From the IMG/VR virus record IMGVR_UViG_2869976549_000001: 39,073 nt of DNA. One strand, 5' to 3'. Made by a program: the position numbers and the translations under genes. This document shows, one piece after another, positions 24,267-28,414 of this stretch (position 1 is the first letter of the stretch; each line of letters starts with the position of its first letter). The DNA is from a virus. Taxonomy: Duplodnaviria; Heunggongvirae; Uroviricota; Caudoviricetes. The notes beneath the pieces are model-generated. The model saw only the letters and a list, made by a program, of their open reading frames with translations. It had not been told where the DNA came from and ran no database searches.

Positions 24267-24336
24267 GGAACAGACGAATGAGGTGATGCTGCCAACTTAC
24301 TGATTTAGTGTATGATGGTGTTTTTGAGGTGCTCCA

Positions 24337-24612
24337 GTGGCTTCTGTTTCTATCAGCTGTCCCTCCTGTTCAGCTACTGACGGGGTGGTGCGTAACGGCA
24401 AAAGCACTGCAGGACATCAGCGCTATCTCTGCTCTCACTGCCGTAAAACATGGCAACTGCAGTTCACTTACACCGCTTCTTAACCCGGTACGCACCAGAA
24501 AATCATTGATATGGCCATGAATGGCGTTGGATGCCGGGCAACTGCACGCATTATGGGCGTTGGCCTCAACACGATTTTACGTCACTTAAAAAACTCAGGC
24601 CGCAGTCGGTAA
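24337..24612 (+). pseudogene. insA: IS1 insA with in-frame TAA at codon 49
   Basis: GTG start, [22 protein letters not shown]... then GCT TCT TAA (24481-24483) where a sense codon is expected; frame otherwise intact to the normal stop. Confidence 0.7.
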
Positions 24613-25034
24613 CCTCGCGCATACAGCCGGGCAGTGACGTCATCGTCTGCGCGGAAATGGACGAACAGTGGGGCTATGTCGGGGCTAAATCGCGCCAGCG
24701 CTGGCTGTTTTACGCGTATGACAGTCTCCGGAAGACGGTTGTTGCGCACGTATTCGGTGAACGCACTATGGCGACGCTGGGGCGTCTTATGAGCCTGCTG
24801 TCACCCTTTGACGTGGTGATATGGATGACGGATGGCTGGCCGCTGTATGAATCCCGCCTGAAGGGAAAGCTGCACGTAATCAGCAAGCGATATACGCAGC
24901 GAATTGAGCGGCATAACCTGAATCTGAGGCAGCACCTGGCACGGCTGGGACGGAAGTCGCTGTCGTTCTCAAAATCGGTGGAGCTGCATGACAAAGTCAT
25001 CGGGCATTATCTGAACATAAAACACTATCAATAA
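24531..25034 (+). CDS. insB: IS1 InsB frame (167 aa)
   Basis: Full-length InsB-frame ORF; A-run frameshift window upstream. Confidence 0.8.
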
Positions 25035-25065
25035 GTTGGAGTCATTACCAACAGGGGGATTTACC

Positions 25066-25197
25066 ATGCTTATTGGCTATGTACGCGTATCAACAAATGA
25101 CCAGAATACCGATCTACAACGTAATGCGTTTATTTGTGCCGGAAGTGAGTTGATTGTTGAGCGAATGGGAAGTTGGCCAGAAGTTGTTATGGCATAG
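25066..25197 (+). pseudogene. Serine recombinase (Pin/Hin-type DNA invertase) N-terminal remnant
   Basis: MLIGYVRVSTNDQNTDLQRNAF (catalytic Ser motif) then degenerates and stops after 43 codons; begins 16 bp after the IS1 end. Confidence 0.6.
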
Positions 25198-25456
25198 TGT
25201 TTACGGTCGTTGATACAGGTAAACAAAAGCGGGGAGAGTCATACTCCCTGAATAGTCGCGAAAATATCTGTGGCATTGTCAAATTCGTGTCGGTGACTAA
25301 TATTTTAGTAATATGCCATTCGAAATGGAGTGCTAACTTATTGATTTAATTGATGTGCGATATTGTATTTTATCGTGTTTTGTTGTCTGTTTTTTATCCA
25401 GTAAGTGTTGTTATGTGTATGAAAGATAAGGGATTTATCATTTTTGAGGTGTGTTC

Positions 25457-26452
25457 ATGAAGCAAACAGTTTATATCGCCAGCCCTGAGAGCCAGCAAAT
25501 TCACGTCTGGAACCTGAATCATGAAGGCGCACTGACGCTGACACAGGTTGTCGATGTGCCGGGGCAGGTGCAGCCGATGGTGGTCAGCCCGGACAAACGT
25601 TATCTCTATGTTGGTGTTCGCCCTGAGTTTCGCGTCCTGGCGTATCGTATTGCCCCGGACGATGGCGCACTGACCTTTGCCGCAGAGTCTGCGCTGCCGG
25701 GTAGTCCGACGCATATTTCCACCGATCACCAGGGGCAGTTTGTCTTTGTAGGTTCTTACAATGCGGGTAACGTGAGCGTAACGCGTCTGGAAGATGGCCT
25801 GCCAGTGGGCGTCGTCGATGTGGTCGAGGGGCTGGACGGTTGCCATTCCGCCAATATCTCACCGGACAACCGTACGCTGTGGGTTCCGGCATTAAAGCAG
25901 GATCGCATTTGCCTGTTTACGGTCAGCGATGATGGTCATCTGGTGGCGCAGGACCCTGCGGAAGTGACTACCGTTGAAGGGGCCGGCCCGCGTCATATGG
26001 TATTCCATCCAAACGAACAATATGCGTATTGCGTCAATGAGTTAAACAGCTCAGTGGATGTCTGGGAACTGAAAGATCCACACGGCAATATTGAATGTGT
26101 CCAGACGCTGGATATGATGCCGGAAAACTTCTCCGACACCTGTTGGGCGGCTGATATTCATATCACCCCGGATGGTCGTCATTTATACGCCTGCGACCGT
26201 ACCGCCAGTCTGATTACCGTTTTCAGCGTTTCGGAAGATGGCAGCGTGTTGAGTAAAGAAGGCTTCCAGCCAACGGAAACCCAGCCGCGCGGCTTCAATG
26301 TTGATCACAGCGGCAAGTATCTGATTGTCGCCGGGCAAAAATCTCACCACATCTCGGTATACGAAATTGTTGGCGAGCAGGGGCTACTGCATGAAAAAGG
26401 CCGCTATGCGGTCGGGCAGGGACCAATGTGGGTGGTGGTTAACGCACACTAA
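25457..26452 (+). CDS. pgl: 6-phosphogluconolactonase
   Basis: 331-aa product [30 protein letters not shown]... matches recalled E. coli Pgl (YbhE) throughout. Confidence 0.92.
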
Positions 26453-26492
26453 CCGCTGATTTACCCGGCGCAGTCTCTCCTGCGCCGGTGTA

Positions 26493-27446
26493 TTAACCTA
26501 TCTCCTGTAACGCATGTCTCTGGCGTTCGACGATATTGGTCCACAAATTGTCTTTATCGTCAGTCCACAAATTAATCAGCAAGGCAAAAAAGCGTTCTGC
26601 TGCCGGAGAAAGCACGGCATCTTTGCGGCGAATAATCCCCAATGTCCGACGTATAACGGGTTCCACCAGTGGAATACCAATAATCGAAGAATAGGGCGCA
26701 TGGGGCATTGCCAGACCAGGAAGCGCCGAAATCCCCAGTCCCGCCTCTACCAGTCCTAATGACGTCGAAAGATGACGCACTTCGTAAAACCAGTCCAGCT
26801 TCCAGGGCTTGTCGGCCAGCTGTTGTTCTATCAACAGTCGGTTGCCGCTGGAGGAGCGTACGCCAATCATTTTGTAACCCACTAACTCCTGCCATTCTAC
26901 AAGCTGCTTTTTGGCCAATGGATGGTCACGCCGACAGGCCAGCACGAACGGCTCGTTGACCAGTGGGGTAAAATCAATGGATGAATTTGTGACGTTGTTC
27001 ATGTTTATGCCAAAGTCTGATTCGTTACACAGCACCGATTCCATGCAATTATTCGTGCCTTGTTCCAGAATCCGCACTTTAATATTGGGATACAGCTCAT
27101 TAAATTTACCGATTGCCAGCGGTAAAAAATAAAATACTGCGGTCGGAATACACGCTAACGTCACCATACCACGATGATAAGCATTCATATCACGAATATT
27201 AAAAAGCGTTTCATCGAATTTCTTTATTAATTCCCGCGCCTCCGGGAGCAACCTTTTTCCTGCTTTTGTTAACGTAACCTTGCGAGTTGTACGCTCAAAT
27301 AGTTGAATATGTAAATCTTCCTCCATCTTTTTTATTCTTCGCGTTAATGCAGGTTGCGTAATATTGAGTAATTTAGCGGCATTGTTAAACGAACTGGACT
27401 CTGCCAGTATGACAAATGCCTTCATACTTGATAATTCATGCTTCAT
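26493..27446 (-). CDS. ybhD: LysR-family transcriptional regulator YbhD
   Basis: N-terminal LysR HTH (MKAFVILAESSSFNNAAKLLNITQPALTRRIKKMEE) and substrate-binding domain; divergent from pgl as in E. coli. The listed ORF has a 21-aa 5' extension. Confidence 0.85.
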   Translation of the reverse strand: MKHELSSMKAFVILAESSSFNNAAKLLNITQPALTRRIKKMEEDLHIQLFERTTRKVTLTKAGKRLLPEARELIKKFDETLFNIRDMNAYHRGMVTLACIPTAVFYFLPLAIGKFNELYPNIKVRILEQGTNNCMESVLCNESDFGINMNNVTNSSIDFTPLVNEPFVLACRRDHPLAKKQLVEWQELVGYKMIGVRSSSGNRLLIEQQLADKPWKLDWFYEVRHLSTSLGLVEAGLGISALPGLAMPHAPYSSIIGIPLVEPVIRRTLGIIRRKDAVLSPAAERFFALLINLWTDDKDNLWTNIVERQRHALQEIG

Positions 27447-27646
27447 TATTACTCCGGAAAATGGAAGCGACGATTTTGGGTGGCTGGCCGTTAAAAATTT
27501 TAACTGCATTTAGCCAACTTAAATTAATGAAAAAATGTTATTAATCGTTGAGCTAAAGTCATTAGAGATGCTTTGCCCTTAATGTAACCATATCGCAATA
27601 AGTTATGTTTTTAAATTGAGGGCATTATTATGAAAAAAATACCCTG

Positions 27647-28414
27647 GGTAATGACTCCAACTTATTGATAGTGTTTTATGTTCAGATAATGCCCGATGGC
27701 TTTGTCATGCAGCTCCACCGATTTTGAGAACGACAGCGACTTCCGTCCCAGCCGTGCCAGGTGCTGCCTCAGATTCAGGTTATGCCGCTCAATTCGCTGC
27801 GTATATCGCTTGCTGATTACGTGCAGCTTTCCCTTCAGGCGGGATTCATACAGCGGCCAGCCATCCGTCATCCATATCACCACGTCAAAGGGTGACAGCA
27901 GGCTCATAAGACGCCCCAGCGTCGCCATAGTGCGTTCACCGAATACGTGCGCAACAACCGTCTTCCGGAGACTGTCATACGCGTAAAACAGCCAGCGCTG
28001 GCGCGATTTAGCCCCGACATAGCCCCACTGTTCGTCCATTTCCGCGCAGACGATGACGTCACTGCCCGGCTGTATGCGCGAGGTTACCGACTGCGGCCTG
28101 AGTTTTTTAAGTGACGTAAAATCGTGTTGAGGCCAACGCCCATAATGCGTGCAGTTGCCCGGCATCCAACGCCATTCATGGCCATATCAATGATTTTCTG
28201 GTGCGTACCGGGTTAAGAAGCGGTGTAAGTGAACTGCAGTTGCCATGTTTTACGGCAGTGAGAGCAGAGATAGCGCTGATGTCCTGCAGTGCTTTTGCCG
28301 TTACGCACCACCCCGTCAGTAGCTGAACAGGAGGGACAGCTGATAGAAACAGAAGCCACTGGAGCACCTCAAAAACACCATCATACACTAAATCAGTAAG
28401 TTGGCAGCATCACC
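27647..28414 (-). mobile_element. IS1, copy B, 768 bp, inverted relative to copy A; no target-site duplication
   Basis: rc of IS1 termini at 27647 and 28414; flanks AATACCCTG / CAAAAAAGG differ; carries the same insA TAA (28213-28215). Confidence 0.9.
27662..28165 (-). CDS. insB: IS1 InsB frame
   Basis: 167-aa ORF, identical to copy A except one residue. Confidence 0.8.

Follow-up and report, generated by a model that had tools for sequence, protein, structure and literature searches.

IS1 is an insertion sequence of about 768 bp that ends in imperfect terminal inverted repeats of about 23 bp (GGTGATGCTGCCAACTTACTGAT and GGTAATGACTCCAACTTATTGAT). Its transposase, InsAB', is encoded by the insA and insB' frames, which are joined by a -1 frameshift at an AAAAAAC motif, and a simple insertion is flanked by a target-site duplication of 8 or 9 bp. 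IS1 also gives rise to adjacent deletions, a classical result of its intramolecular transposition that was first described in the gal region of E. coli, and to composite transposons of the Tn9 and Tn1681 type, in which a short cargo lies between two copies of the element. In Shigella, IS expansion and IS-linked gene loss have been described, and past deletions were found hard to ascribe to IS activity (Hawkey et al. 2020, PMC7373316).

Here, we analyzed a stretch of 39,073 nucleotides (the window) in which pgl and ybhD are bracketed by two inverted IS1 copies. We read it as the product of two IS1-associated deletions in S. sonnei, one on the prophage side and one on the host side, with no inversion, and we give this reading as a whole a probability of about 0.85. 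As in known IS1 adjacent deletions, one IS1 is kept exactly at each junction and the 9-bp duplication is lost, the junction between IS1 and ybhJ is a proven target, and the deleted DNA is contiguous in relatives. Compared with adjacent deletions selected in the laboratory, the events in the window are natural and common to S. sonnei genomes, but they do not differ in kind. The locus also resembles the IS-driven genome reduction of Shigella (PMC7373316) in its high IS density, in the loss of a dispensable metabolic cluster (ybhH, ybhI, ybhJ) and of prophage genes, and in that its junctions are present in every S. sonnei chromosome examined. Unlike in that study, however, an undeleted relative and a same-site insertion tie both deletions to IS1 at base resolution. 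The type of event is ordinary IS-driven genome decay, which is well known, and represents no new biology.

The IS1 pair around pgl-ybhD

A repeat search of the window returned two inverted arms of 768 nt each:

24282..25049, plus strand: IS1 copy 1, running from IRL to IRR; target duplication absent; TAA at insA codon 49
27647..28414, minus strand: IS1 copy 2, running from IRR to IRL; target duplication absent; TAA at insA codon 49

When compared directly, the two copies were identical at 767 of 768 positions, the sole mismatch being at IS1 nt 716 (T versus C). Both have the full length of IS1 and both of its ends: the terminal repeat GGTGATGCTGCC... lies at 24282 and 28414, its counterpart GGTAATGACTCC... 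at 25049 and 27647. Both are 99.5% identical to annotated IS1A copies. The insA and insB' frames and the AAAAAAC motif (24588-24594) were seen as well. In several other genomes, gene calling gives the IS1 at site 1 or 2 a product of 232 aa that contains the Pfam domains Zn_ribbon_InsA, HTH_Tnp_IS1 and DDE_Tnp_IS1. Judging from the sequence, the stop codon in insA makes it unlikely that either window copy would supply its own transposase.

The 9-bp flanks are GACGAATGA and AACAGGGGG for copy 1 and AATACCCTG and CAAAAAAGG for copy 2. No flank match was found for either copy, whether the flanks were compared directly, crosswise or as reverse complements. The initial annotation, made from the sequence, had described two 768-bp IS1 copies in opposite orientation with non-matching 9-bp flanks, and both points hold under this wider comparison. 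The missing duplication argues against a simple insertion, not against the identity of the elements as IS1, and it is expected after an adjacent deletion. In total, 11 IS copies belonging to six kinds lie in the 39 kb of the window.

Host DNA missing at copy 2

The window was aligned to the corresponding locus of an undeleted relative, E. coli FDAARGOS_944 (L001). Positions 23357-24281 correspond to L001 1-925, 25050-27646 to L001 20001-22597 and 28415-33030 to L001 25420-30034, each on the plus strand. All segments are thus colinear and nothing is inverted. Copy 2 stands in place of 2,822 bp (L001 22598-25419), which comprise ybhH from nt 18 onward, all of ybhI and the first 95 nt of ybhJ. 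On the FDAARGOS_944 chromosome (NZ_CP065613.1), the stretch from ybhH to 5' ybhJ lies at 4331638-4334479. The features on this side are as follows:

26493..27446, minus strand: ybhD (LysR-type regulator), intact
27630..27646, plus strand: remaining 17 nt of the ybhH start, where the 2,822-bp deletion breaks on the left (alignment to L001 and L003)
28415..28423, plus strand: CAAAAAAGG, 9-bp IS1 target within ybhJ, one copy left
28415..30581, plus strand: ybhJ (aconitase-family hydratase) without its first 95 nt; Pfam Aconitase
30815..32098, minus strand: ybhC, intact, marking the colinear host backbone to the right

The absence of ybhH and ybhI, the lost 5' end of ybhJ and the removal of about 3 kb of host DNA had all been noticed before this comparison and are confirmed by it. 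They had been ascribed to IS1-mediated deletion and/or inversion; the deletion of ybhH-ybhI-5' ybhJ stands, whereas an inversion does not, as pgl-ybhD has the same orientation as in FDAARGOS_944.

The ybhJ side of copy 2 is a true IS1 target site. Indeed, E. coli PSS-11 carries an equally oriented IS1 at the same base of ybhJ, flanked by two copies of CAAAAAAGG, and its ybhH and ybhI are intact. The ybhJ junction of the window therefore coincides with the PSS-11 insertion site, and the 2,822 bp missing next to it are contiguous. The PSS-11 element is a different variant from the window IS1 (11 differences), indicating that it proves a usable target rather than direct ancestry. More generally, the neighborhood of copy 2 is a frequent IS1 target: 23 E. 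coli genomes have an IS1 near a copy 2 flank (flank plus IS1 covering at least 80% of the query), and among the matches listed for these genomes, the element sits in ybhD, ybhH, ybhI or ybhJ.

When the break points were read base by base, microhomology was absent. A BLAST alignment had run 8 nt from ybhH into IS1, but comparison of GGGTAATGA with GCGTGATGA identified this apparent microhomology as an extension artefact.

YbhD controls ybhH/ybhI (PMC9068703), and both of these target genes are missing at the window locus. ybhH, ybhI and ybhJ go unmentioned in the supplements of Hawkey et al. 2020 (PMC7373316).

Prophage DNA missing at copy 1

Copy 1 stands in place of 19,075 bp that are contiguous in FDAARGOS_944 (L001 926-20000) and that extend from the capsid gene over the tail genes through to the effector gene ipaHb; on NZ_CP065613.1, this interval spans 4309986-4329060. 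The features on this side are as follows:

23760..24266, plus strand: phage structural cement protein gene (Gp24-like); Pfam Phage_cement, XM1_gp53
24278..24281, plus strand: major capsid gene (DUF2184), of which the initial ATGA (4 nt) remains; the 19,075-bp deletion has its left break point here
25066..25161, plus strand: Pin/Gin-type serine invertase remnant of 32 N-terminal codons, prophage right end
25454..25466, plus strand: attR of the ybhA/pgl prophage, core sequence TTCATGAAGCAAA; overlaps the start codon of pgl
25457..26452, plus strand: pgl (6-phosphogluconolactonase), intact; Pfam Lactonase

Among the genes of the ybhA/pgl prophage, that of the cement protein is the last to be intact ahead of the deletion, and its region is 99.9% identical to L001 1-925 in the FDAARGOS_944 prophage. 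Window position 24281 aligns to L001 925, and the capsid coding sequence of L001 begins at 922. On the other side, the invertase remnant matches the Pfam Resolvase N-terminal domain with E = 4e-4, which lies under the gathering score because the remnant is so short; RefSeq labels the orthologous stretch "DNA invertase, missing C-terminus". Because the capsid and tail genes are lost, the prophage can no longer make virions.

The junction between phage DNA and pgl is the right attachment site of a temperate phage and was not made by IS1. The 13-bp core TTCATGAAGCAAA is common to attL (beside ybhA in FDAARGOS_944), to attR (in FDAARGOS_944 and in the window) and to the empty site of PSS-11, which agrees with attL up to the core and with attR from the core on. 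Furthermore, the junction of invertase remnant and pgl occurs without any IS1 in FDAARGOS_943, FDAARGOS_944 and other Shigella-like or EIEC chromosomes. The initial annotation had correctly placed phage head genes (the cement gene and 4 nt of the capsid gene) and a Pin-type invertase remnant (the Resolvase match) next to copy 1. Its proposal that IS1 fused the prophage to the pgl side, however, has to be given up. The prophage deletion of about 19 kb at copy 1 had been overlooked.

In E. coli-labelled genomes, we found no match to IS1 plus a copy 1 flank and no IS1 with a target duplication at either copy 1 junction. Similarly, when the proteins of the invertase remnant and the cement gene were looked up by exact match, no IS1 with a duplication turned up at these junctions.

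The full prophage in FDAARGOS_944 comprises the integrase, early genes, lysis and head genes, a contractile tail, the tail fibre, ipaHb and the invertase remnant. The head genes of the window are 94.5% identical to those of Escherichia phage vB_EcoM-606R2 and 82.5% identical to those of Salmonella phage SEN34, in agreement with the structural module of ipaH-carrying temperate prophages of Shigella and EIEC, which is like that of these two phages. Compared to the full form, the window prophage is a remnant in which capsid, tail and ipaHb are gone and the early region is inverted; unlike the full form, it is interrupted by IS2, IS600, IS911, ISEc20 and IS630. A survey of ipaH genes (PMC9046306) gives no locus-level account of this site. 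Window positions 34281-37031 are 99.3% identical to a portion of the prophage DNA deleted at copy 1 and were considered as a relocated tail fibre-ipaH segment. They turned out to form the end of another prophage, a close relative located at the lambda attachment site, with ipaHa beside ybhB, an arrangement that is also found in the EIEC strain VL40.

Proposed history and alternatives

We compared S. sonnei chromosomes as 20-kb pieces. The four IS1 junctions were found as exact 40-mers in 17 further chromosome assemblies, one of which (L025) is suspect, leaving at least 16 further complete chromosomes with identical junctions, including those of S. sonnei 75/02 (CP019689, lineage III) and 53G (HE616528, lineage II). 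In 53G (L029), the gene order is unchanged according to the gene calls. Since the junctions are common to lineages II and III, the events are old and shared across those lineages. Two chromosomes (L017 and L019) have both IS1 deletions and lack the neighboring IS600 deletion and IS630 insertion, indicating that the IS1 events predate the latter two.

We thus propose the following history. The window derives from S. sonnei, whose ancestor carried a SEN34-related temperate myophage between ybhA and pgl. Integration at the 13-bp core overlapping the pgl start had placed the right end of the prophage (tail fibre, ipaHb and invertase remnant) beside pgl, and two separate IS1-associated deletions followed, one on either side of pgl-ybhD. 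At copy 2, an IS1 would have landed in ybhJ at CAAAAAAGG. Its IRR end would then have attacked codon 6 of ybhH on the same molecule (intramolecular replicative transposition, or adjacent deletion), and the intervening 2.8 kb would have been excised as a circle and then probably lost from the genome. The outcome would be a single IS1 joined to nt 17 of ybhH and to its original target in ybhJ. By analogy with copy 2, another IS1 may have removed the 19,075 bp from capsid nt 5 to just upstream of the invertase remnant by the same process; the IS1 end that initiated this deletion is one that we infer. Neither IS1 has matching flanks, as would follow from adjacent deletions, each of which costs the element one of its two 9-bp repeats. 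That the two copies face opposite ways is incidental.

Each deletion could also have arisen if two direct IS1 copies, inserted separately at its two break points, underwent RecA-dependent recombination, leaving one hybrid IS1 with its left flank from one parent copy and its right flank from the other. The product would be exactly the same, and deletion between homologous IS copies is cited as a mechanism in Shigella (PMC7373316). IS1 is moreover frequent hereabouts, as seen in the 23 genomes mentioned above and in FDAARGOS_943, which carries two same-orientation IS1 copies within this prophage and another one in ybhD. A hybrid would be unrecognizable, since the IS1 copies are too alike. However, none of the genomes examined carries an IS1 at the break points in ybhH (nt 17) and the capsid gene (nt 4) or immediately before the invertase remnant, and this route takes two insertions and a recombination per deletion, compared to one insertion and one intramolecular event. 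We therefore regard recombination as possible but the less likely route, and intramolecular transposition as the probable one. That the inverted pair instead inverted or translocated pgl-ybhD, and so brought prophage DNA beside pgl, appears very improbable. Inverted copies without duplications would be expected after such an event too, but pgl-ybhD has the reference orientation relative to both sides, attR occurs without IS1 in other genomes, there is no reverse-complement match between outer and inner flanks, and no inverted form was found among the S. sonnei chromosomes examined.

The arrangement of an inverted IS1 pair around a 2.6-kb cargo also recalls an inserted composite transposon such as the IS1-flanked Tn1681. 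Unlike in such elements, no 9-bp duplication brackets the 4,133-bp unit, whose outer flanks differ, the cargo is in its native, colinear chromosomal position, and insA is interrupted by a nonsense codon in both copies in the window strain. No second copy of the unit was found in the data searched, plasmids included; the apparent plasmid matches were only mislabelled chromosome pieces with the native pgl-ybhD-ybhH context. A transposon is thus hardly conceivable here, and the same is true of an assembly artefact from collapsed or misjoined IS1 repeats. Even though IS1 is highly repeated in Shigella and the suspect assembly L025 has an oddly shortened IS1 at both sites, the exact 40-nt junctions recur in the 17 further assemblies, which come from different projects.

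Recent, strain-specific gene conversion may explain why the inverted IS1 copies are nearly identical, an insA-null allele (TAA at codon 49) having passed from one into the other. Orthologous IS1 copies seem to differ at nt 130, 176, 194 and 200. A lesser variant is that copy 1 or the adjoining phage DNA may supply the promoter of pgl, the native one having been left at attL; three consensus promoter matches were found upstream of pgl, all weak and too few to be informative against the 1.6 expected by chance. Taken together, we consider these ideas improbable. If the conversion is real, it would be fast enough among Shigella IS1 copies to outpace point mutation about 20-fold or more, and transposase-dead alleles would spread and damp IS1 expansion.

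The two-deletion reading traces, at base resolution, how one part of the S. sonnei genome decayed, and its practical value is modest. The losses comprise a putative organic-acid utilisation cluster (ybhH, ybhI, ybhJ), the virion genes of an ipaH prophage and the local ipaHb copy. It also illustrates that deletions in Shigella can be attributed to a specific IS, given an undeleted relative and a same-site insertion. Finally, it explains why pgl-ybhD appears as an isolated contig of about 2.6 kb in short-read S. sonnei assemblies. Of 3,188 assembly blocks with the exact pgl protein, 2,545 had a longest contig of 2-5 kb, which fits short-read assemblies that break at both IS1 copies around the 2.6-kb insert.

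IS1-bounded deletions on both sides of pgl-ybhD

The two IS1 copies bracketing pgl-ybhD have canonical ends, lie in opposite orientation and, on direct comparison, differ by a single base at IS1 nt 716.

The IS1 pair and its immediate surroundings
ends at 24266: phage cement-protein gene (Pfam Phage_cement), left of copy 1
24282-25049, plus strand: IS1 copy 1, 768 bp
starts at 25066: serine-invertase remnant, 32 codons (Pfam Resolvase N-terminal domain, E = 4e-4), right of copy 1
27647-28414, minus strand: IS1 copy 2, 768 bp

Copy 1 sits between the 9-bp flanks GACGAATGA and AACAGGGGG, copy 2 between AATACCCTG and CAAAAAAGG. 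Comparing them in all ways (direct, crossed and reverse-complement) revealed no matching target duplication, confirming the unmatched flanks reported in the initial annotation.

As an undeleted reference we used FDAARGOS_944, and FDAARGOS_943 was also compared; both are RefSeq "E. coli" genomes carrying ipaH genes and IS600. The gene order in FDAARGOS_944 is ybhA, prophage, pgl, ybhD, ybhH, ybhI, ybhJ, ybhC, second prophage, ybhB. The ybhA/pgl prophage comprises, in this order, integrase, excisionase, early genes, lysis, terminase, portal and cement protein, followed by capsid, contractile tail, baseplate, tail fibres, ipaHb and the invertase remnant. The second prophage occupies the lambda attachment site and ends with tail fibres and ipaHa, followed by ybhB. 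In both genomes the 2.6-kb stretch that separates the IS1 copies, invertase remnant included, has a full-length match.

Alignment of the window to the FDAARGOS_944 locus (L001)
23357-24281, plus strand: L001 1-925
25050-27646, plus strand: L001 20001-22597
28415-33030, plus strand: L001 25420-30034

Since the three blocks are colinear and all on the plus strand, nothing is inverted. This contradicts an inversion or translocation of pgl-ybhD, and no flipped pgl-ybhD segment was found in any assembly examined. Copy 1 occupies the place of L001 926-20000, a stretch of 19,075 bp with some 25 annotated genes that begins at capsid gene nt 5, takes in ipaHb and stops shortly before the invertase remnant. 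Copy 2 replaces L001 22598-25419, so that the host-side loss, initially estimated at about 3 kb, measures 2,822 bp. The gene neighborhood was also as first described: besides the cement gene and invertase remnant, it has pgl and ybhD intact, whereas just 17 nt of ybhH are left, ybhI is missing and the first 95 nt of ybhJ are gone. An 8-nt overlap at the ybhH break was dismissed as a BLAST extension artefact.

An IS1 composite transposon was rejected, as the unit lacks an outer duplication, its cargo occupies the native position and no copy was found on true plasmids. The same junctions in independent assemblies argue against an assembly artefact. The tail fibre-ipaH block at 34281-37031, considered as a moved segment, is part of the second, closely related prophage, as EIEC VL40 demonstrates (ipaHa beside ybhB). 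Between ybhJ and ybhC, two 74-nt direct repeats (30596-30762, 92% identical) resemble intergenic repeats of the REP/BIME type; they explain why BLAST with this segment matched as many as 139,266 genomic places.

Origin of the junctions

The initial annotation had IS1 fusing the prophage to the pgl side, which is not what we found. A 13-bp core, TTCATGAAGCAAA, is common to the empty site of E. coli PSS-11 and both prophage ends in FDAARGOS_944. In the window this core, at which the prophage integrated, lies at 25454-25466, overlapping the pgl start codon, and ordinary E. coli homology resumes at 25454, 3 nt upstream of the ATG. The invertase remnant thus marks the right end of the prophage itself, and it adjoins pgl without any IS1 in several other Shigella-like or EIEC chromosomes (L018, L020 and L023). 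The pgl ATG is kept, but the native upstream region is gone from pgl; in FDAARGOS_944 it is found some 43 kb away, at attL.

For copy 2, the simplest history would be insertion followed by IS1 adjacent deletion. Direct support comes from PSS-11, whose ybhJ carries an IS1 inserted at the identical base and pointing the same way, with CAAAAAAGG on both sides and with ybhH and ybhI intact. The window retains exactly its right-hand IS1-ybhJ junction and a single copy of CAAAAAAGG. IS1 would thus have inserted in ybhJ at the PSS-11-type site, after which an adjacent deletion would have joined its IRR end to ybhH nt 17 with loss of the intervening DNA. Because no intermediate for the copy 1 deletion was found among the E. 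coli-labelled genomes searched, analogy with copy 2 leads us to propose the same mechanism there. Identical products would result if two IS1 copies in direct orientation recombined, and IS1 insertions are frequent in this region, FDAARGOS_943 being one example; we consider this route plausible but less likely than adjacent deletion.

As a consequence, the ybhA/pgl prophage should be unable to produce virions and would have lost its ipaHb copy here. The regulator YbhD has been kept, but its targets ybhH and ybhI, reported to be linked to YbhD and to L-malate use (PMC9068703), have been lost. ybhJ is probably dead. Because the prophage had already separated the native promoter from pgl, this gene would have to be transcribed from phage or IS1 sequence. 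A promoter scan upstream of pgl gave 3 weak consensus matches where chance predicts 1.6. Overall, the observation of the initial annotation is confirmed and its interpretation partly supported. The finding is ordinary, a textbook result of IS1 activity within the well-documented Shigella IS expansion (PMC7373316). Our literature search found no published description of this particular locus. Its elements and mechanism are known, as is the way it is arranged in public reference genomes.

Spread of the junctions and divergence of the IS1 copies

All four IS1 junction 40-mers were found exactly in 17 further chromosome assemblies, and exact look-ups of the pgl, invertase-remnant and cement proteins returned complete, 4.8-5.0 Mb chromosomes that share this layout. 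Gene calls indicate the same order in S. sonnei 53G (HE616528, L029), a lineage II strain; CP019689 is S. sonnei 75/02, of lineage IIIc (PMC5447701). Two loci, L017 and L019, carry both IS1 deletions and lack the window's IS600-bounded lambda-site deletion and IS630 insertion, so the IS1 events are earlier. The pgl protein was matched exactly in 3,188 assembly blocks, in most cases on 2-5 kb contigs, consistent with short-read contigs that end at the IS1 copies on either side.

In both window copies, insA codon 49 is TAA instead of CAA (24481-24483 and 28213-28215; IS1 nt 200), whereas copy 1 insA is intact in every other genome compared (L006-L019, L024 and L029). Comparing the window with 14 other S. 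sonnei genomes gave 0-1 nt differences over 10.9 kb of unique DNA surrounding the pair, and 3-6 nt over the 1.5 kb of the two orthologous IS1 copies (at nt 130, 176, 194 and 200). This excess points to gene conversion between IS1 copies or to errors introduced when repeats were polished. One chromosome of only 4.54 Mb (CP029794.1, L025) has the same four junctions and internally shortened IS1 copies of 449 and 464 bp (L025 9536-9984 and 12581-13044), more likely collapsed assembly repeats than real miniature IS1 elements.

Other IS-associated damage

The window holds 11 IS copies in 39 kb (IS1, IS2, IS600, IS630, IS911 and ISEc20), a load expected for Shigella (PMC7373316). A third IS-bounded deletion lies at 32233-34293, where IS600 (33030-34293) is all that separates a 5'-truncated lambda-site integrase gene from the tail fibre-ipaHa-ybhB end of the same prophage. 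Without this deletion, L017 and L019 keep the lambda-site excisionase and antirepressor genes, and L019 a full-length integrase. Two segments within 1-11837 (1201-5571 and 8210-9885) make up the early region of the ybhA/pgl prophage, which is inverted with respect to the head genes. Where the orientation changes, some 1.8 kb present in the FDAARGOS_944 prophage is missing, tRNA genes included.

IS elements bounding and interrupting the early region
1-1200, 6947-8210 and 9883-10594: IS600 copies
5571-6901: IS2
10589-11837: 1,249-bp IS3-family element, probably IS911

A 1.16-kb insertion encoding a 343-aa transposase (19452-20607), probably IS630, lies at the portal gene start, with the terminase gene directly before it. 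The S. sonnei loci covering the site lack this insertion, so it is specific to the strain or sublineage. Among other Shigella-like lineages, L018 (CP026824.1) shows a different, IS630-bounded prophage deletion with pgl, ybhI, ybhJ and ybhC split, and in L020 (CP026875.1) IS elements of the IS66 family and other kinds have inserted between pgl and ybhD. The damage in these two loci is independent of that in the window, and the decay of the region is thus convergent.
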